Positions 316 through 51,700 of a stretch of DNA of 62,446 nt are shown one piece after another (the first letter of the stretch is position 1; each line of letters opens with the position of its first letter). Made by a program: the position numbers and the translations under genes. Source of the stretch: Clostridia bacterium (GTDB lineage Bacteria; Bacillota; Clostridia; Oscillospirales; CAG-272); the NCBI GenBank assembly GCA_017536635.1, contig JAFXHA010000039.1, positions 1 to 62,446 of the forward strand, given 5' to 3'. The notes beneath the pieces were generated by a model. It was not told where the DNA came from, did no database searches, and saw nothing but the letters and a program-made list of their open reading frames with translations.

Positions 316-1905
316 ATGAACGTAGTAATATACGCTCGATTTTCAAGCCACAGTCAGACCGAGCAATCCATCGAAGGTCAGCTAAAGGTCTGTTACGAAT
401 ATGCCGAATCTCATAATTACACCATTGTTGGTGAATATATCGACCGCGCACAAAGCGGTAAGTTTGATAACCGCGCAGATTTCCAAAGAATGATTGCGGA
501 TAGCGACAAGCATACCTTTGAGGGTGTGCTTGTCTATCAGCTTGACCGCTTTGCCCGTAACCGTTACGACAGCGCGATCTACAAAGCTAAGCTAAAGAAG
601 AACGGAGTTAGGGTTATGTCCGCCAAGGAGAATATCTCGGATGATGCCTCGGGTATTCTTATCGAGGGCGTTCTTGAAAGTATGGCGGAATACTATTCCG
701 TAGAGCTTGCACAGAAGATAAACCGAGGTATGGCAATCAACGCTGAAAAATGCCTATCCAACGGCAGCAATCCCGGACTTGGGTATAAGGTGAATAAAGA
801 TCGCACCTTTTCGGTTGACGAGGAAGAAGCGGCAATCGTCCGTGAGATCTACGAGCGTTATGCAAGCGGAGAAACCAAAGCCGATATTGTTAAGGACTTG
901 CAACGGAGAAAGGTCAAGACCTCAATCGGTAACGAGTTTACCTACAACAGCCTCAGCCATCTTCTGAAAAACAAACGCTATATCGGCATATATTTATACA
1001 AAGGAGTTGAAACGCCCGATGGAATGCCGCGTATTATGGATGACGATTTATTCTATCGGGTACAAGCGCTTATGAACAAGAACAAATCCGCACCCGCGCG
1101 GACTCGCGGTGGAAATGAATACCTTTTGACAACCAAGCTTTTCTGCGGTCATTGCAAGGAAATGATGGTCGGCTACGGTGGCACGGGCAAGTCGGGCAGA
1201 CAGTACCATTATTATAAATGCAAGAACTCTCGCAAAAACAAATGTGATAAGAAGATTGTCGGCAAAGAATATATCGAAAACCGCGTAATAGAAGTGTGTC
1301 TGCAAATGCTCACCGACGATAAGATACGCTATATTGCCAAGCGCGTTGCGGAGGAATGCAATAAGAGTCCCGACAACCTTTCGATAAAGGAAATTAAGAA
1401 AGCCATCAAAGAGGTCGATACCGCGATTGAGAACCTTTGGAAAGGTATTGAGCAAGGACAAGCGGTTGATATGCTGACCGAGCGTTTGAACCGTCGCCAA
1501 GCCGAAAAAGCGGAATTAGAAGCGCAGCTCGCCATTGAGAATAACAAGAAGATCTGTCTGACCGAAGCGCAGATATACGCCTTTCTCGATTTTATCTGTG
1601 AAATGCCGATGGACGATGTCAATAAGCGCAGAGCACTCATAAACATCTTCGTACACTCGGTCTATCTGTACGATGACCATTTCACTATAATCATCAACGC
1701 AAGCAAGAAGCCTTTGAGCATCGACAATATCCCGCTTGACGATATTGAAGAAGCATTTGAAGGCGAAACTGAAGGAAAGGAGGGGTGTTCGTCTATGACG
1801 ACACCTGCTCCACCAAAAAAGATGGACGGCACAATCGTGCCGTCCATCTTTTTTGACGCACCCTCGGAGAGAAGCCGCTCGCGAGTGCGAAGCACAAGCG
1901 AATAG
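316..1905 (+). CDS. Large serine recombinase (integrase)
   Basis: YARFSS catalytic motif, LDRFAR, recombinase domain, zinc ribbon (CGHC...YYKC...C) and a coiled coil. AGGAGG RBS. Confidence 0.95.
   Translation: MNVVIYARFSSHSQTEQSIEGQLKVCYEYAESHNYTIVGEYIDRAQSGKFDNRADFQRMIADSDKHTFEGVLVYQLDRFARNRYDSAIYKAKLKKNGVRVMSAKENISDDASGILIEGVLESMAEYYSVELAQKINRGMAINAEKCLSNGSNPGLGYKVNKDRTFSVDEEEAAIVREIYERYASGETKADIVKDLQRRKVKTSIGNEFTYNSLSHLLKNKRYIGIYLYKGVETPDGMPRIMDDDLFYRVQALMNKNKSAPARTRGGNEYLLTTKLFCGHCKEMMVGYGGTGKSGRQYHYYKCKNSRKNKCDKKIVGKEYIENRVIEVCLQMLTDDKIRYIAKRVAEECNKSPDNLSIKEIKKAIKEVDTAIENLWKGIEQGQAVDMLTERLNRRQAEKAELEAQLAIENNKKICLTEAQIYAFLDFICEMPMDDVNKRRALINIFVHSVYLYDDHFTIIINASKKPLSIDNIPLDDIEEAFEGETEGKEGCSSMTTPAPPKKMDGTIVPSIFFDAPSERSRSRVRSTSE
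1815..1854 (+). terminator. Intrinsic terminator (tRNA-type, after CCA)
   Basis: AAAAAAGATGGACGGCAC-AATC-GTGCCGTCCATCTTTTTT, a perfect inverted repeat. Confidence 0.85.
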
Positions 1906-1994
1906 GGGTTCGCATTTTGCGAGTAAAGGCGACCTGAGCTCGCTCGAGGTCGCTACGAGCAAAAATATTCGCCGCTTGGGCGGCGAAACTCCCC
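1905..1994 (+). repeat. tRNA-linked repeat core (split T-arm), homologous to 16788-16872 and 16956-17039
   Basis: GGGGTTCG-CATTTTGCGAGTAAAGGCGACCTGAGCTCGCTCGAGGTCGCTACGAGCAAAAATATTCGCCG...GGCGAA-ACTCCCC aligns by eye with the copies after tRNA-Arg(CCT). Confidence 0.9.
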
Positions 1995-2071
1995 TTATGA
2001 AAAAAGCACCGAAAGAATATTCTTTTATCAAGTATCGCTTGAAATGATAGCTGCTTTCAATTATAAATATA

Positions 2072-2100
2072 TTGACTTTTCAAGCGATAATTGTTAAAAT
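2072..2100 (+). promoter_or_regulatory. Sigma-A promoter with overlapping inverted repeat (possible XRE operator)
   Basis: TTGACT-17-TAAAAT. TATCGCTTGAAA (2033-2044) and TTTCAAGCGATA (2078-2089) are inverted copies. Confidence 0.55.
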
Positions 2101-2138
2101 GAAGTTGTAACAAGTATTCTCACGGAGGAAGTATAGCA

Positions 2139-3275
2139 ATGGATGTACAATTTATCGGCAGCCGAATAAAAGAGCTCAGGCAGAGCAAGGGGATCACCCA
2201 AAGCGAGCTGGCGGATGCTCTTGTGGTAAGCTTTCAGGCGGTATCCAATTGGGAAAGAGGGATAACTCCGCCGGACGTGGAAAATCTTATACGGATCGCG
2301 GCTTATTTTGGCGTGCTTGTAGATGATCTTTTGCGCCCCAAGAACGATGACGTGTATCTGGGAATCGACGGTGGCGCCACAAAAACCGAGTTTGCAGCGG
2401 TATCCTCGGACGGTACCGTTCTAAAGCGCATTATAAAAAAAGGGTGTAATCCTAACGATATAGGTTTTGCAAAAACAGAGGAGCTGATATTTGAAGGTGT
2501 AAGAGAGATATGTGTTGATTTTCCGTCCCTGAAAACTGTATTTTGCGGAATTGCGGGCATATCGACCGGAAATTATAGAGAAAGATTGCAGGAAAGATTC
2601 GGAAAATATTTTCCCCAGCTTAAAGTGAAGATAAAAACCGACGCGTTTAATCTTTTTGCTATGGTAGACGGTGTAAATATGTCGGTCATCAGCGGTACGG
2701 GCTCGGTTGTATTTGTAAGATGTGGCGAAGATTATAAGCGCATAGGCGGCTGGGGGCATTTGTTCGACAGTGCAGGAAGCGCCTTTGATATAGGCAGAGA
2801 TGCGGTCCGTCAGGCGTTGTTAGAGGAAGATATGAATCAAAAAAGATCGGTAATGAGTAAGCGGCTTCTTAAAAAGCTTAATACCTCAAGCGTATGGGAG
2901 CACATCAACGTTATATATAATGAGGGAAAGCCGTATATTGCCGGACTGGCATCGGTTGTCTTTGAGGCTTACCGCGAAGGAGATGAAAACGCTGTTTCTA
3001 TTATAGATAACAACGCAAGGTCGTTGGCAAATCTTCTTGATGCAGGTGTGAATATTTACGGAGTAAAGCCGATCGCTATCGCCAGCGGAGGAATTTTTGA
3101 GCATTATTCCGACATTATGATCCCTCATATAAAAAAATACAGCAACGTTGAGCTATTAATCATAGATCTCCCACCGATCCTTGGCGCGTGCAGATATGCA
3201 TGCTCTATGGCGGGACATGATATATCTGAGAGCTTTACGACAAACTTTAAAATAAGCTATGGAGATAGAAGATAA
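2139..3275 (+). CDS. XRE HTH fused to a BadF/BadG/BcrA/BcrD-type amino-sugar kinase (MurK/GlcNAc kinase-like)
   Basis: N-terminal XRE HTH (VSFQAVSNWERG), then GIDGGATKT, ISGTGS and GGWGHLFDSAGSA kinase motifs. Confidence 0.85.
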   Translation: MDVQFIGSRIKELRQSKGITQSELADALVVSFQAVSNWERGITPPDVENLIRIAAYFGVLVDDLLRPKNDDVYLGIDGGATKTEFAAVSSDGTVLKRIIKKGCNPNDIGFAKTEELIFEGVREICVDFPSLKTVFCGIAGISTGNYRERLQERFGKYFPQLKVKIKTDAFNLFAMVDGVNMSVISGTGSVVFVRCGEDYKRIGGWGHLFDSAGSAFDIGRDAVRQALLEEDMNQKRSVMSKRLLKKLNTSSVWEHINVIYNEGKPYIAGLASVVFEAYREGDENAVSIIDNNARSLANLLDAGVNIYGVKPIAIASGGIFEHYSDIMIPHIKKYSNVELLIIDLPPILGACRYACSMAGHDISESFTTNFKISYGDRR

Positions 3276-4096
3276 TGAATATACCGAAGACCGAGCAAAG
3301 AAATCCACTTAGTATGAATATGGATTCAATGAGCACAGAGGATATGGCGCGCCTTGTTATATGCGCTAATTACGAGGCGGTTCGCGCGGCAGAAAACGCC
3401 GTTGAGTCAATATCAGCCGCCGTAGACGAAATATCTAAAGCATTTGAGCGCGGCAACAAGCTCGTTTACATAGGCGCGGGAACGTCGGGCAGACTTGGCG
3501 TCATAGACGCCGCGGAATGTCCGCCTACCTTCGGTGTTTCTTATGATATGGTTCAAGGAATTATCGCGGGTGGAAAGGAAAGAATGTTCAGCGCGGGAGA
3601 AGCTGAGGAGGACGTCTATGAAAACGGGCGTCAGTCGGTAGACGATCACGGCGTCGTAGGCGGCGACGTGGTCGTTGGTATCTCCGCGGCAGGGAATGCG
3701 GCATTTGTCGTGGGTGCGCTTGATAGAGCCAAGGAGCTTGGATGTGTTACTGTCGGAATATGCAATAATGCCGACACAAAGGTAAGCAAGACCGCTGACA
3801 TACCGATATTTTTGGATACAGGTGCAGAGGTGCTTACGGGCTCCACTCGTCTTAAAGCGGGAACGGCACAGAAGATAGTGCTTAATACGCTGACGACCTG
3901 CGCTATGACCAAAACCGGCAAGGTATATGAAAATATGATGATAAATCTCGCGCCCTCTAACGAAAAGCTTAAAAGACGAGTAGTCAGGATAGTAAGCGAG
4001 ATCACGGGGCTTGATAGCGATGCCTCGGAGAAGCTATTGGATGCATCGAATTGGAATATAAGAGATGCAATTCAAAAATATAATACGGAAAAATAA
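3275..4096 (+). CDS. murQ: N-acetylmuramic acid 6-phosphate etherase
   Basis: TEQRNP, GAGTSGRLGVIDAAECPPTFG and GSTRLKAGTAQK motifs. Confidence 0.95.
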   Translation: MNIPKTEQRNPLSMNMDSMSTEDMARLVICANYEAVRAAENAVESISAAVDEISKAFERGNKLVYIGAGTSGRLGVIDAAECPPTFGVSYDMVQGIIAGGKERMFSAGEAEEDVYENGRQSVDDHGVVGGDVVVGISAAGNAAFVVGALDRAKELGCVTVGICNNADTKVSKTADIPIFLDTGAEVLTGSTRLKAGTAQKIVLNTLTTCAMTKTGKVYENMMINLAPSNEKLKRRVVRIVSEITGLDSDASEKLLDASNWNIRDAIQKYNTEK

Positions 4097-4107
4097 GGAG
4101 CTCACCT

Positions 4108-6180
4108 ATGTTGAAAAGCTTTGGGAAAGATAATTTTTTAGTAAATATTTATTTTGATGCTCACGGGGCTGCTATGTCGGGAGGAAAAATGGGAGATTTT
4201 GAGATCCTGCCGTCTGCCTTGTTTGAAGCGTATATTAAAAATTCTTCGGGTGAGACCGAGAGGATCACATCCGAGAGCACCTGGAAAAGTGTAAGCGTGC
4301 GCGAGATGGATGCGAGCACCGAAATAATTTTTTGCGGTCCCGATCTTGCCCCTGAGCTTTGCGTTATTCTCAGCGCAAGAGAAGAGAAGGAAGCTTTGGT
4401 TTGGAAGGTAATCGTGAACAATGATAGCGCAGAGTGGAGCGTTATGAGGATAACCTATCCTACGCCGATACTCAAGGGGACGGAATTCAATCTTTTCGTT
4501 CCTCGCTTTGGGGGACGTACAGTAACCGATGCGGGTAAAAACGGCTTTTCCATAAACACTACGTATCCCGGAACCTTGACTATGCAATATTTTGCGGCGT
4601 ATTCCAATACCTATGGCGTATATCTTAGCGTTGAGGACGAAAGAGGAGCTGTGAAATGCTTTAATGCTAAAGCCGCGGACGATGTGTTTTCTCTTACCGC
4701 TACCTTTTACGCAATAGGCGGTGGAAATGTCGGCAATTCATTTGATCTTTACGGAGAGATGCGCTGGCAGGGATTTGTCGGTGATTGGTACGATGCGACG
4801 ATGATCTATGCTGATTTCGTTTATAAAAAGGCGACTTGGCTTCCCGAGCTTTACCGTCCCGATACGGCTGAAAAGTTTAAAAATATTCCTTTTTGGGTCT
4901 GCGATTATGTGCCGAATATTAAATCACAGGGCAATAACAAGCCTATGCTTCTCAGTGCGGGCAGCGATATTTATGAGCCTGAATACTGGTATAAAGCTCC
5001 GATCGAGCTTCAAAAGGAGCTGGGTGGATTGCCGATAGCATATCACGTATATAATTGGTGCAAAATACCGTTCAATATAGAATATCCTCATTTTCTTCCG
5101 GCTAAGGAGACGTTCCTTGAGAATGCCCCTAAGCTTCGTGAGCAGGGAATCTACGTTATGCCATACATCAATGCGGTTAGCTGGGAGAGACGAGACGGAG
5201 AAATGGGACACGCGATAAACTTTGATAATACCGGTGTGCGTGGATCTGTTATTCTCGAAAACGGGAAAACTCTTTTTGAAAATTATCCGCAGGTAACGGT
5301 CAGCGGCCATACCAGCGAGCTCGTTCAGATGTGTCCGAGCTTTAACGAGTGGCATAGCATTATGGAAAAGCTGTCGCGCGATATGGAGTCAACGCTTCCC
5401 ATTGACGGAATTTATTACGATCAGACTGCCGCTACTCCCGCGCGTCCTTGCTATAATCCCGATCACGATCATCTTCCCGGTGGCGGAAGCTTCTGGAGCG
5501 ACGGCTATAACCGTATGATGCAGAAGATAGGAATAAACAAGCCCGACGAGTTCTTCTATTTCACCGAATCCTGTGCAGAGCCTTATATGAAGAGCTTTGA
5601 CGGATATCTGACGTGGAACTGGGTGTATCCTGAGGACGTTCCCGCATTTGCGGCTATTTACGCGGGATACGTGCAGATGGTCGGACGTGTTACCGACGGC
5701 AAGAAAAAAGAAGATCTCGGATTCTTCAAGTGCTGTAACGCGCGTTCTCTCGTATACGGTCAGCAGCTCGGCTGGTGCAAAGCTGATATTATCTGGCGCC
5801 CCGAGTGGCTTGAGTTTATAAGGAACGCCGTAAAGGTGAGATACGAGCTTTCCGACGTGTTCAACAAGGCGCGTATGCTTCGTCCGCCCGTAGCACATAC
5901 CCCTTTGCCAAAGCTAAGCGCCGAGGCGGGACTTGGCAACAAGGGCAACGTGGAATCCGAGATGGTCGTCTCGGGAGCTTGGCGTTATCGCGACGGTAAG
6001 GAAACGGTTATAATAGCTGTAAATATAGCAAATGAAAGCGTACCCTTTGAGCTGAGCTTTGACGTTGCGGAATACGGCATTGCAGACAAACAGCTGCCAA
6101 AGGAATTCAAGCTTGACGGACAGCGTTGCACGGTTAGTGATACACTCGAAAAGAATGGTGTGCGCGTCTGGAGAATTTAA
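4108..6180 (+). CDS. Putative glycoside hydrolase-like protein (DUF6259-like)
   Basis: 690 aa with a beta-sandwich-like N-terminus and TIM-barrel-like motifs (VMPYIN, DGIYYDQ, FTESCAEPY). Lies in the murQ operon. Confidence 0.6.
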   Translation: MLKSFGKDNFLVNIYFDAHGAAMSGGKMGDFEILPSALFEAYIKNSSGETERITSESTWKSVSVREMDASTEIIFCGPDLAPELCVILSAREEKEALVWKVIVNNDSAEWSVMRITYPTPILKGTEFNLFVPRFGGRTVTDAGKNGFSINTTYPGTLTMQYFAAYSNTYGVYLSVEDERGAVKCFNAKAADDVFSLTATFYAIGGGNVGNSFDLYGEMRWQGFVGDWYDATMIYADFVYKKATWLPELYRPDTAEKFKNIPFWVCDYVPNIKSQGNNKPMLLSAGSDIYEPEYWYKAPIELQKELGGLPIAYHVYNWCKIPFNIEYPHFLPAKETFLENAPKLREQGIYVMPYINAVSWERRDGEMGHAINFDNTGVRGSVILENGKTLFENYPQVTVSGHTSELVQMCPSFNEWHSIMEKLSRDMESTLPIDGIYYDQTAATPARPCYNPDHDHLPGGGSFWSDGYNRMMQKIGINKPDEFFYFTESCAEPYMKSFDGYLTWNWVYPEDVPAFAAIYAGYVQMVGRVTDGKKKEDLGFFKCCNARSLVYGQQLGWCKADIIWRPEWLEFIRNAVKVRYELSDVFNKARMLRPPVAHTPLPKLSAEAGLGNKGNVESEMVVSGAWRYRDGKETVIIAVNIANESVPFELSFDVAEYGIADKQLPKEFKLDGQRCTVSDTLEKNGVRVWRI

Positions 6181-6200
6181 ATATAGCAAGGAGAATAGTT

Positions 6201-7421
6201 ATGGATTATACGATAGAACGTCTGAGAGCAGAGGACTATGACGAGCTTCTCGATATGTTAAATACTGTATTCAAAAAGCCTGAGGGTAATACGTTCGATA
6301 TCTTTCTTCCTGTAATGTGGGAGAGGGATGACGAGCATATGTCCAAGCACATAGCTATCAGGGAAAATGGAAAGATCGCCGCCGTAGTCGGCATTTATCC
6401 TCTTCCTGCAAAAGTAGGCGGCGAGGAAGTTATCTTCTCAACCATCGGAAACGTAGCGACGCTTCCCGAATGCGAGGGAAAGGGAATGATGAAGGCCCTT
6501 ATGACAAGATCTCTTGAAGAGGCGAAAAAAAGCGGGATCGATATAGCCCGTCTCGCAGGCGCACGTCAGAGATATAACCGCTACGGATTTGAGCACGCGG
6601 GAGCACATTATCTGTTCAAGCTTACTCCCAAAAATCTTATCGATTATTATGGCGGAAAAGTCATAGACGGTGAATGTATATATAAGGGAAGCGTATTCAG
6701 CGGCGGCGTGGGCTTTGAAAAAAGGCTGACGTTTGCGCAAGTAACACTTGATACCCCCGAGCTTCTCGACTGTGTTATGGAGTTGGAAAAGAATGCGCCC
6801 TTGTATGCCGACAGAGGTGAAAGAGTGCAGTTCTTTAAAACACTTTCGGCATATAAGCATAAGATTTGGGGTGCACTTGACGTTGAAGGCAAGCTCGTTG
6901 GATATATGTGCGTAACGCCCGATAATGCTTATATATACGAGCACCGCGCAACCGATGCCGATGCAGAGTATCAGATGCTTTGCGAATGGCTGCTCCATAG
7001 TGGCGTGAAAGAGCTTAATATACACGTGGCACCTTGGGAATGCAAGTTGAACCGCAAGCTTATGGCTGTTTGCGAAAAATGGTCGGTGTATAACACCTCG
7101 ATGTTCCACGTGTTCAATTGGAGTAAGGTCCTGAACGCACTTCTTAAAATAAAGTCAAATTATACGAGCATACCTGACGGAAATTTTGTTTTGAAGATAG
7201 AGGGATACGGTACGGTCGAATTTTCGGGCGATAGATGTGTCGATACCGACAAAGAACCTCAGATGACGCTCAGTCAACTCGATGCTACGAGATTCCTGCT
7301 TGGCAGTATACCGTTTGAATCGGCGTGCGAGTTGCCCGAAGCTCTTGACACTCAGACAAGAGTATATATTCAAAGCATTTTGCCCTTGCCGCTTTGGTGG
7401 TGTAATCAGGACAGAGTGTAG
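6201..7421 (+). CDS. GNAT N-acetyltransferase (Eis/GlmA-like tandem GNAT)
   Basis: IGNVATLPECEGKGMM acetyl-CoA motif and RQRYNRYGFE; about 400 aa. Confidence 0.8.
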   Translation: MDYTIERLRAEDYDELLDMLNTVFKKPEGNTFDIFLPVMWERDDEHMSKHIAIRENGKIAAVVGIYPLPAKVGGEEVIFSTIGNVATLPECEGKGMMKALMTRSLEEAKKSGIDIARLAGARQRYNRYGFEHAGAHYLFKLTPKNLIDYYGGKVIDGECIYKGSVFSGGVGFEKRLTFAQVTLDTPELLDCVMELEKNAPLYADRGERVQFFKTLSAYKHKIWGALDVEGKLVGYMCVTPDNAYIYEHRATDADAEYQMLCEWLLHSGVKELNIHVAPWECKLNRKLMAVCEKWSVYNTSMFHVFNWSKVLNALLKIKSNYTSIPDGNFVLKIEGYGTVEFSGDRCVDTDKEPQMTLSQLDATRFLLGSIPFESACELPEALDTQTRVYIQSILPLPLWWCNQDRV

Positions 7422-7470
7422 TGCTGTCTATGCGGGATAGCAAGGCAATTTCCAAGTCCACCAAAAAATG

Positions 7471-7498
7471 ATAGCACCGCATTTGCGGTGCTATTTTT
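7471..7498. terminator. Terminator between convergent genes
   Basis: ATAGCACCGCA-TT-TGCGGTGCTAT followed by a T run. Confidence 0.75.
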
Positions 7499-7503
7499 CT
7501 GTC

Positions 7504-8199
7504 TTAGACCCCTCGCTGCCTTTTCTCCATTTTTCTCCAATTCACGAAGCCGTAAAGATCGTTGATAAGGAATACCGCAAAGCAGATGACGACCGAGATA
7601 TATGAAATATCGCTAAAGGATGCAAGAACCCAAAGAATTATGAGCACTACGTCGTTGGCGGCGTAGGCAAGGGCAAAATACGGACTGCGGCGCGCGGTCA
7701 GATATACGGCGATAAAGCTGGTCGTTACCGACAGCGTGCTCGGAAGGATATTAGCCGTTCCGAACGCCGCGAGAATAAAATAAAACGCGACGGTAACCGC
7801 GGCGGTAAGTATAAGCATCAAGATCACCTCAGTTGTTTTGATGCGGTTGATCCGAACCTCTGCCTTGCCCGACTCATATGGGTTTCTCAGCCACGACACA
7901 AGCGCTACGACCGCCATCGGAACGGTCATTCCAACGTAGGTCATCATCTCGCCGTAATATGCGAATCCAAATGATATAAAGCCGTATATCAGCCCGAAGA
8001 TTATCATCAGCACCTGCCCGAAGGGGTTGCCCTTGGCGCAGAAAATGAGCGACGTCGCGCCGATAAGAGAGGCGGCGAGCGTAAGATATCCCGATCCGTC
8101 GGAGAAGAAGAAGGAAACCGTGATGAGAAGCACCGACGATGCCCATAGCAATAATTCAAATTTTGAAAAATAATTTAGTAATGACTTTGCTTTTTTCAT
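7504..8199 (-). CDS. pnuC: PnuC-like nicotinamide riboside/mononucleotide transporter
   Basis: Multi-pass membrane protein with AKGNPFGQ, AYYGEM, YAANDVVLIILW and NDLYGFVNW motifs. Confidence 0.75.
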   Translation of the reverse strand: MKKAKSLLNYFSKFELLLWASSVLLITVSFFFSDGSGYLTLAASLIGATSLIFCAKGNPFGQVLMIIFGLIYGFISFGFAYYGEMMTYVGMTVPMAVVALVSWLRNPYESGKAEVRINRIKTTEVILMLILTAAVTVAFYFILAAFGTANILPSTLSVTTSFIAVYLTARRSPYFALAYAANDVVLIILWVLASFSDISYISVVICFAVFLINDLYGFVNWRKMEKRQRGV

Positions 8200-8208
8200 A
8201 ATACTCCT

Positions 8209-8335
8209 AAAAAAAGCATTCGCGGTGTATCTTCAAAGACCTAACGATACACGAACGAATGCTTTTGCATTTCCTACCCGGTGGCAGATTGTTTTTTGTT
8301 TTGGATATTATATCATCTTTTTTGAAAGAAGTCAA
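8209..8335 (-). promoter_or_regulatory. Sigma-A promoter plus a leader containing a terminator (candidate attenuator/riboswitch)
   Basis: TTGACT-17-TATAAT (8335-8307), a small hairpin at 8274-8287, and a long hairpin with a U tract at 8209-8266 directly before the RBS. Confidence 0.65.
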
Positions 8336-8417
8336 GAGGTTTTTTGAATCAAACTATGCGAGATGCAAAGTCGACTTGAACTCGAGGTGGACGGGATAAA
8401 TATATTCGCTAAATATA

Positions 8418-8446
8418 TTGACAAAGGCTTAGCCGTATATTATAAT
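8418..8446 (+). promoter_or_regulatory. Sigma-A promoter
   Basis: TTGACA-17-TATAAT. Confidence 0.7.
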
Positions 8447-8512
8447 TACGATAAGTATACAAGCGTCAATATAAAGATATCAAAGATAATTATAATTTTA
8501 TGGAGGACGGCT

Positions 8513-10579
8513 ATGAAATGGATATGGACGGATCAGACAGAGGCGCCTTGCTTTGCTGAGTTTAAGCTTCCATTTTCTTATCAAAAGGGGAAGATCGTTT
8601 TGAAGATCAGCGCGGAATACCGTTATATCGCGTATGTTAACGGCGTGTTTGCCTCAAACGGACAGTATCCCGATGTCCCGTGGTATAAGGTGTATGACGA
8701 GATCGACATAACTCATCTCGCTTTGACAGGCGATAATGAGTTGCGTGTATATGCTTTTCATATGGGACTTGACGGTCAGGTGGCATATGCGGATATTCCT
8801 TGCGTGGCTTTTGAGATATATTGTGATGGAGAGCGATTGTGCGGTTCGGACGAGCATACGCTTGCTCGTAGACTTGCGTCATATTCCGCGCCGGATAAAA
8901 CAACGCGTCAGCTGGGATATGGCTTCTCCTATGACTTTACCGCCGAGCAGCTTCCTTGGAATAAAGCTGTTGTTAAGGAAACGGGATACAAAGAGGTTCC
9001 TCGTCCCGTTGCCAAAACAAAGGTAGAAAACGAAGCGCTTGGAATCGTTGGCGCACAGGGCGAATTTATCAAGAATGGCGGAAATACCGCTGCGGAGATA
9101 GTCCAGAACTGTTGGATGAGAACCGTGAATTTTGCGGCTATGACGAACTCTCTCGCGCGCGACAAATATCGCGATCTAAACACTCCGGTAACCTTTGTTA
9201 AAAAGGAGGGTGACGGAGTGTTCATTATCCTTGATCTTGGGCGTAATACCGTGGGCTTCCCTCGGTTCAAGGTCAGCGTTAAGGAGTCTTGCAAGGCGTA
9301 TCTTTGCTGGGGAGAGCACTTGCAGGATCTTCGGATCCGCTCCTATATTGGTGGGCGCAATTTCGCCTACGGCTTGACTTTAAAGGCAGGAGAGAACGAA
9401 TTTACCGAATATTTTCGTCGCATTGGCGGTAGATATATGGGTTTTTATGTCGAGACCGACGAGGTAACTGTTTTTAAGGTCGGCATGCTTGCCGACGAAT
9501 ATCCGCTCAAAAAGCCCGAAAAGGACTTTGGAGACAGATTTCTCAATAAGATATACGAAACCGCGCGAAGAACTATGGAGCTTTGTATACACGATCACTA
9601 CGAGGATTGTCCCTGGCGCGAGCAAGCACTGTATGCAGGCGACAGCAGGATACAGATGATGTTCGGTTACGGGGCGTTTGCCGAGTATGATATGCCGCGC
9701 GAGAGTATTCGTATGATGGCTCTTTGCTCTGAGGACGACGGTCTTATCCCAATGTGCGCTCCGTCGCGATTGACCTTTAATATAACAGCAGGATCTTTTC
9801 CGTGGATAACCTCTCTATGTGACTATGTTGAGCATTCGGGAGATGCAACGTTTTTTGGCGAGATGCTACCGTACGTCGAGAGCATAATGAAAACTTTTGA
9901 AAAGCATACCACCGATCAAGGCATTATGCTTTTCGGAGAGCCGAGATATTGGAATTTCCACGAGTGGTCGGATGGGCTGACAGGCCCGCTTAACGGGAAA
10001 ATATGGCGAGATGAGTATATCAAGCCCGAGCCGGACGGCGCGCTTACCGCATATGGACTTTTTGCGACGACAAAGCTTGTTGAGGTCTTGAGAAGGATAG
10101 GCGATACTGAGAGGGCAGAGAAGTATAATAACTATCGCAAGCGCTTGACAGACGGAATAGCGGCATTTTATGACGAGAAAAAAGGCTTGTACCGTAGCTA
10201 TATTGACCGAGAGCAGTATCATAACTATACCAACGCTATTATTTTGGCGTCGGGTGTCGTTACCGATAAAAAGTGTATAGAAAATATATGTGCCGCGCTG
10301 AAAGATCCTCAAAAGCACGGCGTGATAGAGATGAATCTCGCGTATTATTCCTTTAAATATGACGTTCTTATCAAATACGACGAAAATGGTCTTGATTTTG
10401 CAATAAACGAGATCTGCGATATTTTCGGCGGTATGCTGCTTGAGGGCAGTACGTCATTCTGGGAGACGACCAAGGGTGAATTGGACTTCAATAACGCAGG
10501 TAGCCTTTGCCACGGCTGGTCAGCCGTTGCTTGCTATGTGTTGGATAAATATTATCAGCCTCGCCGAAATAAAGAATAA
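8513..10579 (+). CDS. Alpha-L-rhamnosidase-like glycoside hydrolase (GH78)
   Basis: YEDCPWREQALYAGD, GSTSFWE and SLCHGWSA motifs. Start moved to ATG 8513 behind GGAGG. Confidence 0.85.
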   Translation: MKWIWTDQTEAPCFAEFKLPFSYQKGKIVLKISAEYRYIAYVNGVFASNGQYPDVPWYKVYDEIDITHLALTGDNELRVYAFHMGLDGQVAYADIPCVAFEIYCDGERLCGSDEHTLARRLASYSAPDKTTRQLGYGFSYDFTAEQLPWNKAVVKETGYKEVPRPVAKTKVENEALGIVGAQGEFIKNGGNTAAEIVQNCWMRTVNFAAMTNSLARDKYRDLNTPVTFVKKEGDGVFIILDLGRNTVGFPRFKVSVKESCKAYLCWGEHLQDLRIRSYIGGRNFAYGLTLKAGENEFTEYFRRIGGRYMGFYVETDEVTVFKVGMLADEYPLKKPEKDFGDRFLNKIYETARRTMELCIHDHYEDCPWREQALYAGDSRIQMMFGYGAFAEYDMPRESIRMMALCSEDDGLIPMCAPSRLTFNITAGSFPWITSLCDYVEHSGDATFFGEMLPYVESIMKTFEKHTTDQGIMLFGEPRYWNFHEWSDGLTGPLNGKIWRDEYIKPEPDGALTAYGLFATTKLVEVLRRIGDTERAEKYNNYRKRLTDGIAAFYDEKKGLYRSYIDREQYHNYTNAIILASGVVTDKKCIENICAALKDPQKHGVIEMNLAYYSFKYDVLIKYDENGLDFAINEICDIFGGMLLEGSTSFWETTKGELDFNNAGSLCHGWSAVACYVLDKYYQPRRNKE

Positions 10580-10580
10580 A

Positions 10581-10606
10581 ATAACGGACGGGGAATCCCG
10601 TCCGTT
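10581..10606. repeat. Terminator hairpin, direct repeat copy 1 (26 bp)
   Basis: ATAACGGACGGGGAATCCCGTCCGTT, identical to 12004-12029. Confidence 0.9.
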
Positions 10607-10609
10607 TGC

Positions 10610-10810
10610 TTATTCAAAAAAATCGTTCACGCTGCACGAGAGTAGCTCGGCAACGTCGGGCAGAAGGGTAATGTCGGGGTAACATTCCTTTCTTTCCCAT
10701 TTTGATATCGCCTGCGCGGAAACGCCCAAGAGCTTTCCGAAATCCTCTTGAGTTAAGCGGTTCCGATATCGATATTCCTTTATCTTTTCCGAGATACTTA
10801 TATTTTTCAT
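10610..10810 (-). CDS. XRE-family HTH regulator
   Basis: LTQEDFGKLLGVSAQAISKWER..YPDI. Confidence 0.85.
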   Translation of the reverse strand: MKNISISEKIKEYRYRNRLTQEDFGKLLGVSAQAISKWERKECYPDITLLPDVAELLSCSVNDFFE

Positions 10811-10811
10811 T

Positions 10812-11342
10812 TTATATCAACCAATATATTTCCTTTTCGCGCGCCATAATACCGCAAGCGATCATCTCGCGACGAATGGTACAGTGATCCTCATGAAATC
10901 GGTGAATTATATCGTTTACCTCTTTCTCACCATATTTTCGGCCCTTCTCAAGTTGCTTGGCTATCTCTTCAAGTACGATCTCACGCTTTTTTCTCTGTGT
11001 GGGGAGCTGTGTCAGCTTCCCGTATTTGAAGAAATTTGATATGACCTCTTTTTTATATTTTTCCTCGGTGTCAATTATGGGATCGTCTTTTTTTATCAGC
11101 TCGTAAAGCGGCTTTTCAAAGATATCACGGTTTAGGGAATAGATAATGTAGAACTGCGAGCGAGTGCAGTTTACAACGCCCGCCGATTCCATTTTCTTGA
11201 GGTGATAACAAATGGTTGCAGGGGTAAGCGAAAGCTCGCAGGCGATCTTTTCAACGTAGGAATCCTCTTTCAAAAGAATGTTGAGAATTTCAAGACGGGT
11301 TTCATCGGCGAGGAGCTTTAAAAGTTCAAGTTTTTCTTTCAT
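10812..11342 (-). CDS. ArsR-family regulator with a C-terminal DUF2087-like domain
   Basis: LADETRLEIL...LTPATICYHLKKM HTH, then LPTQRKKR...YGEKEVN...DHCTIRR. Start at MKEKL. Confidence 0.8.
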   Translation of the reverse strand: MKEKLELLKLLADETRLEILNILLKEDSYVEKIACELSLTPATICYHLKKMESAGVVNCTRSQFYIIYSLNRDIFEKPLYELIKKDDPIIDTEEKYKKEVISNFFKYGKLTQLPTQRKKREIVLEEIAKQLEKGRKYGEKEVNDIIHRFHEDHCTIRREMIACGIMAREKEIYWLI

Positions 11343-11872: not shown

Positions 11873-12003
11873 AATGTAAAATATCCACCTTTCTGTCTTT
11901 ATTAACTATACTGATATTATACCCATCTAATCACTTGTTGTCAATACTGATTCGATATATTTCTAATCATTCTACCAATGGTAGAATTTTTAAATGAAAA
12001 TGC

Positions 12004-12029
12004 ATAACGGACGGGGAATCCCGTCCGTT
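12004..12029. repeat. Terminator hairpin, direct repeat copy 2
   Basis: Identical to 10581-10606; lies downstream of rpe. Confidence 0.9.
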
Positions 12030-12051
12030 GATTTGTTTTTTATAAAAATAG

Positions 12052-12702: not shown

Positions 12703-12789
12703 AGTGGTTTCCTTTCGTGAGTTTGTTATTTTATCCTTCCCCAAAGGGGAAGGCTTTATAGATCTTTTTTAAACTCTTAAACCATTTGC

Positions 12790-12916: not shown

Positions 12917-12925
12917 ATATTGTGA

Positions 12926-14160: not shown

Positions 14161-14186
14161 TTAAGATCCTCCGTGGAAGGTTATTA

Positions 14187-14636: not shown

Positions 14637-14657
14637 TTTGTACCTCTTTTATGTTTT

Positions 14658-15371: not shown

Positions 15372-15389
15372 TTTTTGCTTTGTGTCCTC

Positions 15390-41987: not shown

Positions 41988-42031
41988 AAAAGGCTTGGAA
42001 AAATCCAAGCCTTTTGTTTTTTGATTTTAAT
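41988..42031. repeat. Terminator, duplicated copy 1
   Basis: AAAAGGCTTGGAAAAATCCAAGCCTTTTGTTTTTTGATTTTAAT; matches 46286-46329. Confidence 0.85.
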
Positions 42032-43715
42032 AATCAAGAATATCTACCATCAGGTTTTTGAGCTTTGTTGTTGCGGTACCCTTTATCTGCGGCCATACTG
42101 CAGAAATGCTGGAATATGCACCGCTTCCGTTGCCCGACCATATCTTTCTTATAGCGAGGAATACCTCTTCGTAAGATCCTGTGCTGAGATTTTCAACTCT
42201 CAGGGATGCTCCGTAAAGGACGCCGAAGTCGAATACCATTCCGTTTCGAATGATATTGAACATTTTTTGCATATGCTCGTCGTGTCCGGCGTTCTGCCTC
42301 TTGAGATATATCTCAAAATAAACGGGTGCTATACGGCGATTGCCCTCTGCCGCGATAAGCTCAAGCACGGTTGCGGAGCGCTCAAACGCATCTGCCTTTG
42401 CGGCCTTGGGGATAAGATAGGAAGTGTATCCGCCGGTCAGAGGCGTAGAATAGGTATTTTTTACGCTTGATTTATACAGGGGAAGGGGAAGTATCGTGAA
42501 ATCTATTTCGAGATTCTGTTCGATCATAGCTACGTCCGAGTATGCGAACATTGCTCTGCCCTCGGAGAACATTTTGTATCTTGTGGGATCCTGCTTGTAA
42601 ACGTCGTTGTCGTTGAGCTGAGCCTGCCACCAATCTATAAAGTCAATAATAGGCTGCTGGTCAAGTGTCCAGTCGAACGTGCCTTTATTGTTCATTTCCG
42701 TGTATCTGAAGCCCGATGCAAACAACCAGTTGTCGAGCCACGCACCACGCTCTGTGCCGAGGAAACCGTACGTATCGCCTTCGTCGGAATCCATATTTTC
42801 TGTGTTGGTGTTCTCATAAGTATCCTGCGCGAGAACCATCATATTTTCCATCGTCCAGGCACCGTCGTAAACCATATCGTAAAGATCAAACTTATCCTTG
42901 CCCGCGTGCTCACTTGAGAAAAATTCGTTGTTAACGAAAATGCAAAGCATCTTGCTGAAGGAAGGATAAGAGGAGTTGTCGGACATCCAGAAGATACGGC
43001 CGCCGACCATTATTTCCTTCTTGATTTCCTGTCCCCAATATTCCTTGGTGGTTTCCAGAAGATTGAGATTGTCAGATTCCGCAAGGTCTCTGGAGAGTCC
43101 CTTTGCCGCAACGAGCGGGGGAATAAGGTTGTATGCGAGTGAGAGGTCATAAGGGGTTCCCGCACCCGAGGCAGCTTCTATTTCCGACGTGAAGGGATCC
43201 ATATCCGAATATCCGCCGTAAAGGGGAGTAAAGACGAAATCTATACCAACGTATTCTTCTATCCACTTCTGACGGTTTATTATGGCATCCTTGACTATAT
43301 CTCCGTCGGATTCCTCAAGGAATTCTCCGGCAGAAATAAGCGAATCGGCGAGCACCTTGAACTCATATCCGCCGTAATCTCTGTCCTCGGGGATGTCAGA
43401 CCCCTGAAAGTTTTCGGGCTTGAGAAGATCCTCAAGCGTGTAATCCTCATATTTTGAGGTGTCGTCAACTACAACGTTTGTGTCGGTAGCAAAGCTGATC
43501 TCCTCGGTCTCCGAATCTTCCTTGCTGTCGCTTTCATCTTCCGAATCCTCGCTTGGCGCGGAATCGTCTTTTTTGGTATCTGCAGTGGTCGATGCCGTAG
43601 TATCCTTCGTGCCATCCGATTCGCCACCGAGATTGGTCTTCTTGGAGCTGCATCCTACGAACACTGCCGTTATCATAAGCAATGCAAGCACGAGAGCTAA
43701 GATCTTTTTGAACAT
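42027..43715 (-). CDS. Extracellular solute-binding-like lipoprotein, paralog 3
   Basis: Same lipobox, motifs and C-terminus (LMVDILDY) as paralogs 1 and 2. Confidence 0.8.
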   Translation of the reverse strand: MFKKILALVLALLMITAVFVGCSSKKTNLGGESDGTKDTTASTTADTKKDDSAPSEDSEDESDSKEDSETEEISFATDTNVVVDDTSKYEDYTLEDLLKPENFQGSDIPEDRDYGGYEFKVLADSLISAGEFLEESDGDIVKDAIINRQKWIEEYVGIDFVFTPLYGGYSDMDPFTSEIEAASGAGTPYDLSLAYNLIPPLVAAKGLSRDLAESDNLNLLETTKEYWGQEIKKEIMVGGRIFWMSDNSSYPSFSKMLCIFVNNEFFSSEHAGKDKFDLYDMVYDGAWTMENMMVLAQDTYENTNTENMDSDEGDTYGFLGTERGAWLDNWLFASGFRYTEMNNKGTFDWTLDQQPIIDFIDWWQAQLNDNDVYKQDPTRYKMFSEGRAMFAYSDVAMIEQNLEIDFTILPLPLYKSSVKNTYSTPLTGGYTSYLIPKAAKADAFERSATVLELIAAEGNRRIAPVYFEIYLKRQNAGHDEHMQKMFNIIRNGMVFDFGVLYGASLRVENLSTGSYEEVFLAIRKIWSGNGSGAYSSISAVWPQIKGTATTKLKNLMVDILDY

Positions 43716-43749
43716 AATACCCTCCATTTGTGTTTATTTAATAATAATT

Positions 43750-49749: not shown

Positions 49750-49824
49750 TGGGATGTCGCCAAGCGGTAAGGCACCAGACTTTGACTCTGGCATTCGTCG
49801 GTTCAAATCCGGCCATCCCAGCCA
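49750..49824 (+). tRNA. tRNA-Gln(TTG)
   Basis: TGGGATG/CATCCCA acceptor, CCAGA-CTTTGAC-TCTGG anticodon arm, GGTTCAAATCC T arm, encoded CCA. Confidence 0.97.
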
Positions 49825-49999
49825 GCAAAAAAGGACGCCACGGGCGTCCATTTTTGCTGGCTGGGATGACCTTTCGATTTGCCCCGAGCATTTGCAGAGC
49901 AAATGCGTCGGTGCACATTCGCCGCCAAAGCCGTCGGGGTGCTCGCACACCAGCGGCTGAGCGTGCGAATAACGGAGCGAAGCGGAGTTACCGGCCATC
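49825..49999 (+). repeat. tRNA-Gln-linked repeat, copy 1
   Basis: Terminator, inverted tRNA 3' end (TGGCTGGGATGACC), hairpins and a T-arm-like copy ending CCGGCCATC. Confidence 0.9.
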
Positions 50000-50019
50000 T
50001 TTAATAATACGTAAAATTG

Positions 50020-50190
50020 AAAAGGCACCCATACGGGCGTCCTTTTTTGCTGGCTGAGATGACCGTTCGATTTGCCCCGAGCATTTGCAGAGCAAATGCG
50101 TCGGTGCACATTCGCCGCCAAAGCCGTCGGGGTGCTCGAACACCAGCGGCTGGGTGTGCAAATCCTCCATTCGCAAAGCGAATAGGAATA
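50020..50190 (+). repeat. tRNA-Gln-linked repeat, copy 2 (offset 193 bp)
   Basis: About 120 bp near-identical to copy 1. Confidence 0.9.
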
Positions 50191-50429
50191 CCCTGCTACA
50201 GGGGACTTTTCTCCGCTTTTTTGACTCTGAATCTTTTTGAAATTTTGTAGATGCATTTCGGGCATTTCGGGTCTGTAGACAGATTCGAACTGCCAACACA
50301 AAGCGTTTTTTTACTTATCAGGCGAATCGATTCGAAAAATGCGTTATTGATTTGAATTGTTTTCTATGTTATAATGTAGCCATCAAGTACTTGGTAAATG
50401 AACTTTGTTTAACCAAAGGAGAGTAATAT

Positions 50430-51473
50430 ATGGATATTGGAAATAAAATCAAACTATTGCGTCAAAAAATTGGAGCAACACAGGAGCAGCTCGGAGAAAA
50501 AATAGGAGTTAGCGCCCAATCCATATCAAAATGGGAAACGGGTGTGACAATGCCTGATATTACGCTGTTACCGATCTTATCAAGTGAGCTTGGTGTTACG
50601 ATCGACGAACTTTTCGATTTGACCGTAGAGCAGAAATTGCAACGAATAGAAAAAAGAATAGACATTGAAGGGGATTTAACCGACGATGTCTTTTATGAGT
50701 ATGAGAATATGTTGAAAATTCAGCTTGATGAATTTGAAGACAGAAGAAGAGTTTTGTCTTTGTTGGCAAGGCTTTATCATCATCGTGCAGAATCATATTT
50801 AAGTAAAGTAAGCAAATATGCCCGCGAAGCGATTCTGATTGCTCCCGAAATCAAGGACTGCCAATGGATGTTGCAGAAAGCGAATGGGGCAACCTCTTGG
50901 GATTGGAACATCTCAAATCATGTGGACGTTATAGATTTTTACAAAAAGGTAATAGCAAGCGACACGATCATTCCCAAAACGCCGTTGCCTTATTATTATC
51001 TTATTGATAATCTTATTGCCGATCACCGAACGAAAGAAGCAGAGGAATATTTGAACAAATGCGCGGAATTACCGGCTCACAGACCTTTCTTGATTCCTGT
51101 ATACAAGGCATATATTGCGCTTGCGGAATACGATGTGCAGAAAGCGGATGATATTATGAACTCTGCTTTAATAGAGTTTTCGGATAATACAGGGTTTCTT
51201 TTCGAGATTGCTCAGTACTACGCGCGTAAATGTGAGTATGAAAGGGCGATATCGTATTATGAAAAATCATGGGCATTAGAAGAATCTCAAAAGCCACGAT
51301 TTACGGACGCTCTTGAAGGTATTGCAACAATATATGAAATACTTGGAGATCACGCTAAAACGAATGAAACTTATGATAGAATGATTACTTGCCTCAAAAA
51401 CGAATGGGGGTATAAAGATGACGATGCTGCAGTCATCTGTGTAGAACGAAAGAAGAAAGCTTTGATCAAATAA
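50430..51473 (+). CDS. XRE HTH + TPR regulator
   Basis: VSAQSISKWETG..PDI HTH, then helical TPR-like repeats (AQYYARKCEYERAISYYEKS). Confidence 0.85.
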   Translation: MDIGNKIKLLRQKIGATQEQLGEKIGVSAQSISKWETGVTMPDITLLPILSSELGVTIDELFDLTVEQKLQRIEKRIDIEGDLTDDVFYEYENMLKIQLDEFEDRRRVLSLLARLYHHRAESYLSKVSKYAREAILIAPEIKDCQWMLQKANGATSWDWNISNHVDVIDFYKKVIASDTIIPKTPLPYYYLIDNLIADHRTKEAEEYLNKCAELPAHRPFLIPVYKAYIALAEYDVQKADDIMNSALIEFSDNTGFLFEIAQYYARKCEYERAISYYEKSWALEESQKPRFTDALEGIATIYEILGDHAKTNETYDRMITCLKNEWGYKDDDAAVICVERKKKALIK

Positions 51474-51629
51474 TACATAGGACTCGTATGCAAGCATGGC
51501 GTTGCGCCCCGAAAGATAGCGGTTAAGTGCAACTCCCATCATCGCCAAGGGGTTAGTGTGCCCTCTGCCAAATCGCCGTGTATCTAAATCAGCCACACAC
51601 GGTTTTGTATCTAAATCGGACACATATCA

Positions 51630-51700
51630 CAGCAAAAAAGGACGCCACGGGCGTCATTTTTTGCTGGCTGGGATGACCTTTCGATTTGCCCGAGCATTTG
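51630..51700 (+). repeat. tRNA-Gln-linked repeat, partial copy 3
   Basis: CAGCAAAAAAGGACGCCACGGGCGTC...GCTGGCTGGGATGACCTTTCGATTTGCCCGAGCATTTG matches 49823-49894. Confidence 0.9.

Follow-up and report, generated by a model that had tools for sequence, protein, structure and literature searches.

The stretch of DNA analysed here, referred to as the window, comprises 62,446 nucleotides (nt) of contig JAFXHA010000039.1 in assembly GCA_017536635.1, from a Clostridia bacterium whose genome (G000) is represented by 94 contigs at 88% completeness. The window contains exactly three tRNA genes, on which ARAGORN and Rfam agree: tRNA-Arg(CCT) at 16631-16705 on the forward strand, tRNA-Arg(ACG) at 20389-20465 on the reverse strand, and tRNA-Gln(TTG) at 49750-49824 on the forward strand. 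Behind each of them lies at least one small unit of about 130-190 nt, mostly gene-less, in which a terminator-like hairpin is followed by an inverted copy of a tRNA 3' end or T-arm, by further hairpins, and by a direct T-arm copy that is split by an insert. An initial annotation of this DNA had claimed that the same layout follows all three tRNAs, and the motifs that it quoted are present, at the positions given below.

Two such units stand in tandem behind tRNA-Arg(CCT), all of their parts on the forward strand. Unit 1 (16706-16877), which the covariance model R1 matches at 16784-16880 with 108 bits, begins with a hairpin and T-run of terminator-like appearance, read from the sequence (16710-16735), and the 3' arm of this hairpin continues into the complement of the tRNA 3' end. 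The inverted copy itself occupies 16736-16750 and has 2 mismatches. The T-arm 5' half (16787-16799) forms the 3' arm of a long hairpin and is followed by an insert of about 75 nt, here termed Y, and then by the T-arm 3' half (16861-16872). Unit 2 (16878-17047; R1 match at 16951-17047, 108.2 bits) is a tandem copy of unit 1, its inverted copy (16903-16917) being a perfect complement of the tRNA 3' end and its T-arm halves lying at 16954-16966 (5') and 17028-17039 (3'). The two units are 97% identical (16711-16872 versus 16878-17039). A distal terminator-like hairpin (17051-17083, forward strand) closes the array, and a promoter-like site of the next gene follows at 17109-17137.

Three units, again on the forward strand, follow tRNA-Gln(TTG). 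Unit 1 (49825-50012) is composed of a terminator (49825-49857), an inverted tRNA end (49858-49871), a hairpin, and a T-arm split by a variant of Y (49905-49999, with halves at 49905-49923 and 49990-49999). Unit 2 (50016-50200; inverted copy 50051-50064) is a tandem copy with a diverged right end and is 95% identical to unit 1 over 131 nt (49840-49970 versus 50033-50163). Between unit 2 and unit 3 lies a cargo gene with an HTH_3 domain detected by Pfam (50430-51473, forward strand). Unit 3 (51630-51700; inverted copy 51665-51678) is truncated to the terminator and inverted tRNA end alone and is 97% identical to unit 1. On the reverse strand, tRNA-Arg(ACG) is followed by a terminator-like hairpin and a unit termed class A, which together occupy 20200-20388 (hairpin part 20350-20388). 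The inverted T-arm of this unit (20324-20335) and its direct T-arm copy (20231-20244, with a degenerate tail at 20200-20225) pair around two covarying hairpins; the segments of the degenerate direct copy are 20231-20244 and 20200-20211.

The window units have strong predicted folds. Relative to dinucleotide shuffles, the fold z-scores are -4.5 for Arg-CCT unit 2, -4.6 for the Arg-ACG unit and -6.1 for Gln unit 1, and in each case 0 of 200 shuffles folded as well. The predicted Arg-CCT and Gln folds are closed by the inverted copy pairing with the direct copy. A promoter scan found no promoter-like sites inside the window units. A consensus terminator scan flagged the Gln hairpins at 49833-49849 and 51641-51655 together with the Arg-ACG palindrome, but did not flag the Arg-CCT and ssrA hairpins; because it missed both, the term terminator as applied to these two denotes a hairpin with a T-run. 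The units do not correspond to a described family in Rfam, as the initial annotation had suspected: only the three tRNAs match in the window, and nothing credible was obtained at E values up to 10 or 1 around two loci. Similarly, no published description of such units was found in the literature searched, which excluded supplements and subscription journals.

The same layout is present in the native flank of the tmRNA gene (ssrA), at a site that the initial annotation had described as a recombinase CCA junction. Window positions 316-1816 (forward strand) hold the right end of an integrated element of about 17 kb with a large serine recombinase gene, the open reading frame 316-1905 having Resolvase, Recombinase and Zn_ribbon_recom domains according to Pfam. 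The conserved element sequence ends in ...CTGCTCCACCAA at 1805-1816 (forward strand). Copies of the recombinase protein in four other species of the genus (G056, G010, G003 and G019) are 96-98% identical, whereas the flanking genes are only about 70% identical between these genomes. When three loci (G019, G056 and G010) were aligned, DNA identity stopped exactly at CCACCAA, past which each continues into a different terminator. Additionally, in G056 about 16 kb separates the tmRNA gene from the recombinase on the same contig and strand, the sequence that starts right after the ssrA CCA is common to G000, G019 and G010, and G083, which is without the element, has ssrA, then a terminator, then a unit. 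Judging from these alignments, window 1-1816 is the right end (attR) of the 17-kb element at the CCA end of ssrA, so that 1816-2002 would be the displaced native ssrA flank, consisting of terminator and unit.

This flank comprises, on the forward strand, a hairpin and T-run read as terminator-like (1816-1854), probably the native ssrA terminator, and a tmRNA-type unit (1856-2002; R1 match at 1901-2002, 98.6 bits) in which hairpins are followed by a Y-split T-arm copy with its 5' half at 1904-1912 and its 3' half at 1986-1996. The unit proposed at the junction is therefore real, but it is tailored to the T-arm of tmRNA and not to that of a tRNA. Its T-stem, GGGG/CCCC, is that of the tmRNA in the five other genomes of the genus that were examined, whereas the tmRNA of G000 itself has CGGG/CCCG. 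The unit was thus either copied in the past or imported, and has not been updated from the neighbouring gene. As for the 17-kb element, it consists of window 1-1816 plus C63:86357-101681 of G000, with TCCACCAA flanking both sides, and a tyrosine recombinase gene is located inside it at C63:90744.

Tailoring of the units to the local tRNA was assessed with two controls. Within the genome, the best ungapped match between the last 28 nt of each tRNA and its own 400-nt downstream region was scored against a baseline given by the other 27 tRNA tails in the same downstream region. In inverted orientation, self scores were 15 for Leu-GAG, 13 for Gln-CTG, 12 for Arg-ACG, and 11 for both Arg-CCT and Gln-TTG, with non-self maxima of 8 for Arg-CCT, 9 for Gln-TTG and 12 for Arg-ACG. 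In direct orientation, self scores were 21 (Arg-CCG), 18 (Leu-CAG), 16 (Ser-GGA), 13 (Arg-TCT), 12 (Cys), 11 (Leu-GAG), 10 (Gln-CTG), 9 (Arg-CCT) and 9 (Gln-TTG), relative to non-self means of about 6. The direct score of Gln-TTG exceeds its non-self maximum of 8, whereas that of Arg-CCT falls short of its non-self maximum of 10 and is not separated by this control, because the insert splits that copy. The inverted self score of Arg-ACG equals its non-self maximum because other tRNAs have the same T-arm, and locus-specific tailoring is not demonstrated there by tail scores.

The second control compared 34 Y units of other species, each with an upstream tRNA, with 200 draws of tails from tRNAs of other types. 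At least four of the five positions of the T-stem 5' half were identical to the cognate tRNA in 33 of the 34 units. All five were identical to the cognate in 15 of 34 (non-cognate mean 1.8, maximum 6). The 3' 5-mer of the cognate T-stem was present in 22 of 34 (mean 2.8, maximum 7), and 9 of 34 units contained a 9-mer that extends into the acceptor (mean 0, maximum 0). The tRNA-matching segments thus outscore non-cognate controls both within the genome and in these 34 units. The proposal that the tRNA-derived parts track the local tRNA is upheld for the Arg-CCT inverted copy, for the inverted and direct Gln copies and across species; by tail score it is not demonstrated for Arg-ACG or for the Arg-CCT direct copy. 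Class A units fit their local T-stems in both their inverted and direct T-arm copies when different tRNAs are compared, with GAGTTC behind Ser and GGGTTC behind Arg.

The insert Y has three helices, occupies the position TTCG^A of the pseudo-T-arms, and was found in pseudo-T-arms of at least seven tRNA/tmRNA types. Thirty Y loci from the genus yielded 25 distinct copies. In an alignment of 31 distinct copies, the T-stem closes a junction of a long helix and a short helix; the long helix has an inner hairpin with an apical GAG-CTYG-CTC, and the loops and a tandem G.A motif are conserved. Within the alignment, 90.6% of cells are paired, compared with 82.3% in shuffles and 38-51% in slid controls. 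Both sides change in 21 of 29 pairs, against a shuffled mean of 8.9. Neither the paired fraction nor this number was reached in any of 500 shuffles. Wobble counts in the Y helices are 29 G.T (16 of them an inherited T-stem U.G) versus 15 A.C, without strand bias. At its right end, Y has no clean junction in Gln and Ser units, and the modules to the left of Y vary by locus.

Within G000, R1 has seven matches: both Arg-CCT units, the ssrA-type unit, and units at C31, C73 (Gln-CTG), C32 and C46. Gln-TTG unit 1 is matched over its full length as well, though weakly (49904-50002, 20.2 bits, E 0.0016). The Gln insert is a divergent relative of the Arg-CCT insert, and therefore the insert family spans three window loci; the initial annotation had correctly noted that an insert is shared, but had counted two loci. 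The Gln-TTG variant is also found behind tRNA-Gln(CTG) in other species. BLAST searches with the Arg-CCT insert showed it in 26 of 72 genomes of the genus. At loci that reach far enough, the nearest upstream gene on the same strand is tRNA-Arg(CCT), tRNA-Glu(CTC) or tRNA-Glu(TTC), the tRNA ending 75-87 nt upstream of the first Y unit in the genus loci, and at L120 it is the tmRNA gene. Under strict filters, R1 matched only three of 150 other genomes from 97 genera of the order, in each case immediately downstream of a tRNA whose T-arm agrees with the halves in the unit (Gln-CTG twice, Tyr once).

A search of one genome per prokaryote species for a 20-letter Y motif returned 62 instances in 54 stretches. 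One of these, in a record of Planctomycetota (L224), has nothing of Y beyond the motif, and L229/L252 and L230 break off early in Y; the remaining instances are in records titled uncultured Clostridia, Eubacteriales or Oscillospiraceae. A tRNA or tmRNA gene lies on the same strand no more than 700 nt upstream of 36 of the 62; another 15 sit under 300 nt from the end of a contig, and the remaining 11 have no such gene upstream. The core is thus linked to tRNA or tmRNA genes, as first claimed: where at least 300 nt of upstream sequence is available, 36 of 47 instances are linked. The upstream genes in these 36 are Gln-CTG (15), Glu-CTC (9), Arg-CCT (5), Glu-TTC (3), tmRNA (3) and Ala-GGC (1). 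Y cores are 90-97% identical between species and tRNA types, whereas flanking genes are about 70% identical.

Occupied and empty sites were both observed. G000 has 28 tRNA/tmRNA genes, and a unit is present behind about 10-11 of about 22 assessable loci; of the other assessable loci, three have a different, hairpin-array element and about eight have nothing. Across the genus, 21-22 of the 28 tRNA-Arg(CCT) loci that could be assessed are followed by a unit, and the inserts are of at least four types. A direct repeat of 19-20 nt running through CCA is present in 6 of these 28 loci, and in four it is followed by a second, different terminator. The left part of the Arg-CCT units is the whole 28-nt tRNA end in inverted orientation with a small deletion at the T-loop, which gives the order tRNA end, hairpin, inverted copy, hairpin and then the direct copy with its insert. 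Between species, the whole unit is conserved at about 80-85%. The 28 tRNA-Gln(CTG) loci of the genus comprise 16 with a Y-type unit, seven with a hairpin array, three with another integrated element and two that are empty; no Gln-CTG unit lacking Y but otherwise identical was seen among them. At Arg-ACG, G004 and G021 have empty loci, whereas those of G003, G005 and G002 are occupied by differing inserts. The comparison of filled with empty loci, suggested at the outset, therefore recovered both states among related species for Arg-ACG, Arg-CCT and Gln-CTG, the contrast being one between species only.

Direct repeats identical to the 3' part of a gene and starting in the T-loop or at the anticodon lie downstream of the intact gene. 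Those that start in the T-loop run through CCA into a second, different terminator at Arg-CCG and Leu-CAG in G000, at Glu-CTC in G023 and at Gln-CTG in G089. One Asn locus has a 51-nt repeat from the anticodon stem, and another Asn locus has a T-loop repeat without an insert. At G003, G005 and L170, the same terminator stands on both sides. The class A core is nearly species-confined: BLAST found it in 2 of 72 genomes of the genus, with weak matches in the one other genome. Within G000 it occurs behind Arg-TCT, in at least three tandem copies that span a contig break, behind Ser-GGA in two copies, behind Arg-ACG and, in part, behind His.

Tandem arrays of units are common, and some carry genes. 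For instance, at C73 tRNA-Gln(CTG) is followed by unit, gene, unit, gene and unit, with near-identical left modules and three differing inserts, and at C31 an island of small genes, at least 2.3 kb long, is closed by a Y unit with T-arm halves of Glu-CTC type. Homologues of the window HTH gene are present in 3 of 71 other genomes of the genus: in G078 the gene is once more preceded by tRNA-Gln(TTG) and a small unit, in G060 by the 3' module of another gene together with a Gln-type terminator and inverted copy, and in G018 there is no unit nearby. The window (51476-51625) and G060 (L286:1150-1290) also have in common a conserved non-coding stretch of about 110-150 nt that reaches from the stop codon of the cargo to the Gln-type terminator; it stands behind different genes in the two species and has no Rfam match at E up to 1. 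At cargo-gene ends, TTTTCGTAGCC, then TTT, then AC is found right before the terminator (C31:23420-23450, and C73 before units 2 and 3).

Two further Y units involve tRNA-Ser(CGA). At C32, a Y unit follows a 3' fragment of this gene that extends from the anticodon loop to CCA. By its sequence, this fragment resembles an attR, with the full gene on C46 as the attL of the same larger element, in which case the Y unit behind it would belong to the native flank, as at ssrA. C46 has a mirror-image unit behind an antisense copy of the tRNA-Ser 5' half, and Y again sits at TTCG^A in the copied end. The tRNA-Ser(CGA) gene appears to be split by integrations, with the full gene at C46:53-141 and foreign sequence directly behind it, and the 3' fragment at C32:16800-17000; a perfect 40-nt copy of its 5' half is found about 120 nt upstream of the gene (C46:1-340).

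The units may be the attachment-site modules of tiny recombinase-less integrating elements or cassettes that enter tRNA genes at the T-loop, as in tandem tRNA/ssrA islands. This is the reading that we favour, because it accommodates the T-loop repeats, the second terminators, the filled and empty sites, the arrays with cargo and the presence of one insert across several tRNAs; the non-autonomous tRNA-targeting micro-element or integration scar suggested by the initial annotation is, correspondingly, the best fit among its proposals. Under this model, the unit would represent a circular or permuted element that carries a tRNA 3' remainder with CCA, its own terminator, an inverted tRNA end, a spacer hairpin, a T-arm 5' half and an insert. 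Site-specific recombination, with the recombinase supplied in trans, would insert it at TTCG^A of the T-loop, where an intact tRNA would be rebuilt from the copy in the element. The old T-arm 3' half and acceptor of the host would be pushed downstream to become the direct repeat, taking their terminator with them, which would account for the second terminators being different. Tandem units could then arise by repeated insertion or unequal exchange, cargo genes carried between the repeat and the next terminator could build up small cassette arrays, and Y would be a discrete piece in the T-loop of non-essential pseudo-T-arms. The near-identical Y cores amid differing neighbour modules, as far as sequence comparison goes, count in favour of a mobile element. 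Y-bearing units also occur with the T-arm of another species' allele (L100, L122b and the tmRNA-type unit of the window), which fits a copy that was fixed when the unit formed or was moved between genomes, and not one that is continuously recopied. The mirror unit on the antisense tRNA-Ser 5' half favours a process at the DNA level.

Confidence and doubt about this reading are evenly balanced, because the inverted copy and the structured insert are unlike an attachment site and because a recombinase was not found. A classical attachment site needs neither an inverted copy of the tRNA end nor a structured insert of about 70 nt, and the model explains neither. The conservation of the whole Arg-CCT unit would also fit a selected, vertically inherited element, and the mirror unit is so fully tailored to an odd local target that local copying explains it better than a pre-adapted attP. 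Among the window open reading frames, Pfam detected no recombinase gene in or beside any unit, and a recombinase inside an element and adjoining its attachment end is seen only in the separate 17-kb element at ssrA. PF00589 has five matches in G000, none at unit-bearing tRNAs; no integrase lies upstream of the arrays, the gene upstream of tRNA-Gln(CTG) encoding a penicillin-binding protein. Candidate recombinases of G000 that might act in trans are encoded at C7:12678, C82:344, C8 (two genes), C63:90744 and C75:1, together with the one in the window. A blastn search of Arg-CCT unit 1 against 50,697 phage records gave no match, and a 17-letter Y motif in IMG/VR was found in four stretches that appear chance-like and are without the rest of Y or a tRNA. 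All of these observations weigh against the favoured reading.

The closest likeness is to tandem islands at tRNA and ssrA genes. Genes for tRNA and tmRNA are classic landing sites of mobile DNA, where one usually finds a large, integrase-bearing island together with a short partial-tRNA repeat, and Williams, in 2002, reportedly distinguished sublocation classes of integration sites within tRNA genes. The ssrA islands of Dehalococcoides are tandem islands bounded by direct repeats (PMC3146451), and successive integrations separated by partial tRNAs have been described (10.1101/2020.12.28.424599); tandem islands of this kind are understood to be built up by repeated integration. The Dehalococcoides islands, tycheposons and accreted cis-mobilizable elements share with the present units a repeat of the 3' part beginning in the T-loop or anticodon loop, one end at which the gene stays intact, arrays separated by partial copies, and some members without an integrase. 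In contrast to such islands, the units measure about 130-190 nt, are mostly gene-less and have no recombinase that could be found. They also add an inverted tRNA end and a covarying insert that splits the T-arm, two features that have not been described for the attachment modules of tRNA-targeted elements.

Of the alternatives to integrating modules, the one given most weight, though still unlikely, is that the units are functional structured RNAs, transcribed when the tRNA promoter is read through. In such an RNA, the inverted copy would pair with the tRNA 3' end or with the acceptor copy of the unit, forming a four-way, cloverleaf-like junction involved in tRNA processing, stability or regulation. 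The covariation of Y, with its conserved loops and tandem G.A motif, agrees with this, as do the predicted folds closed by inverted and direct copies and the fact that the units always have the orientation of the tRNA and often lie between two terminator-like hairpins. Mismatches in the inverted copies are, in our reading, mostly C-to-T changes that preserve a G.U on the sense strand, but this count is crude, many 8-of-12 matches arising by chance and the C-to-T excess coming from a curated subset with events shared by descent. Once the tRNA-derived U.G is set aside, however, G.T and A.C are about equally frequent in the Y helices (13 versus 15), and the mirror unit lies antisense on the 5' side of its tRNA. 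Furthermore, a terminator-like hairpin with a T-run precedes the units, they contain no promoter-like site and match no Rfam family, and tandem arrays, cargo and filled/empty sites are typical of mobile DNA. A cis-antisense action on pre-tRNA, which the initial annotation had also suggested, is doubtful for similar reasons, the inverted copy lying behind the terminator-like hairpin and promoter-like sites not having been found in the units.

Somewhat less probable again is a single-strand reading, in which each unit is an element of about 170 nt that encodes no protein and integrates as folded single-stranded DNA. Pairing between the inverted and direct copies of the 28 nt at the tRNA 3' end would mimic the T-arm/acceptor duplex of the gene, with Y branching off exactly at the crossover, and a host recombinase or one acting in trans would exchange one strand with the tRNA T-loop. 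The tRNA gene would then be comparable to attI and the unit to attC, and cassette arrays would grow behind tRNAs. Integron cassettes each have one structured attC, of conserved fold and variable sequence and length, and form arrays from a fixed site, with small cargo mostly of unknown function. The present arrays share with them one structured module per cassette, growth from one fixed site and small cargo genes; one imperfect palindrome per cassette, an attC-like feature, is apparent at C73 (three units with three inserts) and in the covariation of Y. In contrast, the fixed site here is a tRNA gene, and no tyrosine recombinase was found beside the arrays, IntI-specific features not having been searched for. 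The end motifs, moreover, are T-stem halves and not attC core sites, the attC consensus itself not having been searched for, and recombination of a single strand is a feature of attC. A second parallel is offered by CTX-phi and other elements that integrate as a folded single strand by means of host Xer recombinases: by analogy, the inverted target copies could fold into a mimic of the chromosomal site with an irregular centre. Unlike in CTX-phi, the targets are tRNA genes and not dif, and there is no phage genome.

The units might also be a mutational by-product without function or dedicated enzyme, created by template switching at the terminator hairpin (a fold-back or inverted triplication) and amplified by unequal exchange. 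The order of direct copy, hairpin, inverted copy, hairpin and direct copy is what this would produce; the tailoring is perfect even at an odd local target, the same terminator is found on both sides at three loci, and the units resemble fossil copies that are not updated. However, such a process cannot produce a second, different terminator, cannot put the same 75-nt insert into the pseudo-T-arms of seven tRNA/tmRNA types across species, and does not predict compensatory evolution of helices, which makes it improbable. Equally improbable is a landing pad or decoy kept by the host, in which the pseudo-T-arm would serve as a harmless second integrase target or a site of cassette exchange and so spare the tRNA gene. 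In the arrays that were read, cargo is always distal to the first unit and never between it and the tRNA, and units occupy the native flank of genes hit by large elements (ssrA and tRNA-Ser(CGA)). Yet those large elements entered the gene's own 3' end or anticodon loop and not the unit, and a copy whose T-loop is interrupted by an insert should no longer make a good target of T-loop type.

Least probable of all is that Y is a miniature derivative of an IS200/IS605-type element (single-strand, with Y1 transposase) or IS110-type element targeting TTCG: Y always follows TTCG without a clear target duplication and is directly bordered on either side by similar small hairpins of the same orientation, but its right junction is unclean in the Gln and Ser units, the 88%-complete G000 has no match to Y1_Tnp, DEDD_Tnp_IS110 (PF01548) or Transposase_20 (PF02371), and Y1_Tnp is found in 11 of 26 genomes of the genus with Y versus 20 of 46 without it, and is therefore not associated with Y. 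Repetitive extragenic palindromes (REP/REPIN) and other palindromic elements derived from IS200/IS605 are short, hairpin-forming, intergenic sequences that are amplified behind genes and partnered by a Y1 transposase or RAYT. The units share all of these traits except the partner, for which the transposase result just given applies, and they differ further in being tailored to the neighbouring tRNA.

A retroelement-derived copy, from tRNA-primed or template-switch cDNA, was also considered and set aside, the reverse transcriptase family PF00078 being unmatched in the 88%-complete G000.

In this lineage of uncultured gut Clostridia, gene-less, structured, tRNA-tailored units thus stand at about half or more of the assessed loci. 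If they are miniature integrating elements, they would be among the smallest site-specific mobile units known and would illustrate how small gene cassettes build up behind tRNAs in the absence of a resident integrase; if they are instead RNAs, they would represent a new class linked to tRNAs. Either way, the units explain assembly breaks at tRNAs in these genomes, and the R1 model lets annotators distinguish real genes from pseudo-tRNA ends. In four metagenome runs, the contigs over window positions 1000-20900 end at tRNAs or units, none bridges them, and the joints are to other Y copies or other organisms. Additionally, C28 of G000 begins with a stretch (within C28:1-40) that we take to be sequencing-adapter-like and that is followed by the Arg-TCT tandem units; therefore, the assembly breaks inside the repeat array.

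Other kinds of element were also observed behind tRNAs. A second family consists of five to eight short hairpins separated by a spacer motif of 7-10 nt that is inverted in the second half of the array (AATGATG then CATCATT, or CATATCATC then GATGATATAC). Such an array is followed by a promoter-like site, a conserved ribosome-binding region (AAAGGCGGTG) and a small gene, and several of these genes start like four-helix-bundle proteins of the 23S rRNA intervening-sequence type. In G000, hairpin arrays are located at C31:6400-6665 (tRNA-Ser-GCT), C67:10803-11050 (Tyr) and C65:14350-14600 (Thr-CGT); elsewhere, they occur at L044, L046, L053, L055, L059 and L062 of G023 and at the seven Gln-CTG loci, one of which (L276) ends in a tRNA-type repeat. 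A third type, located behind tRNA terminators, has runs of TTCACT-like repeats, a short spacer and inverted AGTGAA-like repeats, and was seen at C10:5450-5560 in G000, at L050 and L057 in G023, and at L151 and L174 in the genus; at L174, a tRNA-type direct repeat is present further downstream. Finally, the window contains two paralogous genes on the reverse strand (39188-40882 and 42027-43727), which are about 2.8 kb apart and have stretches in common that are 75-78% identical.

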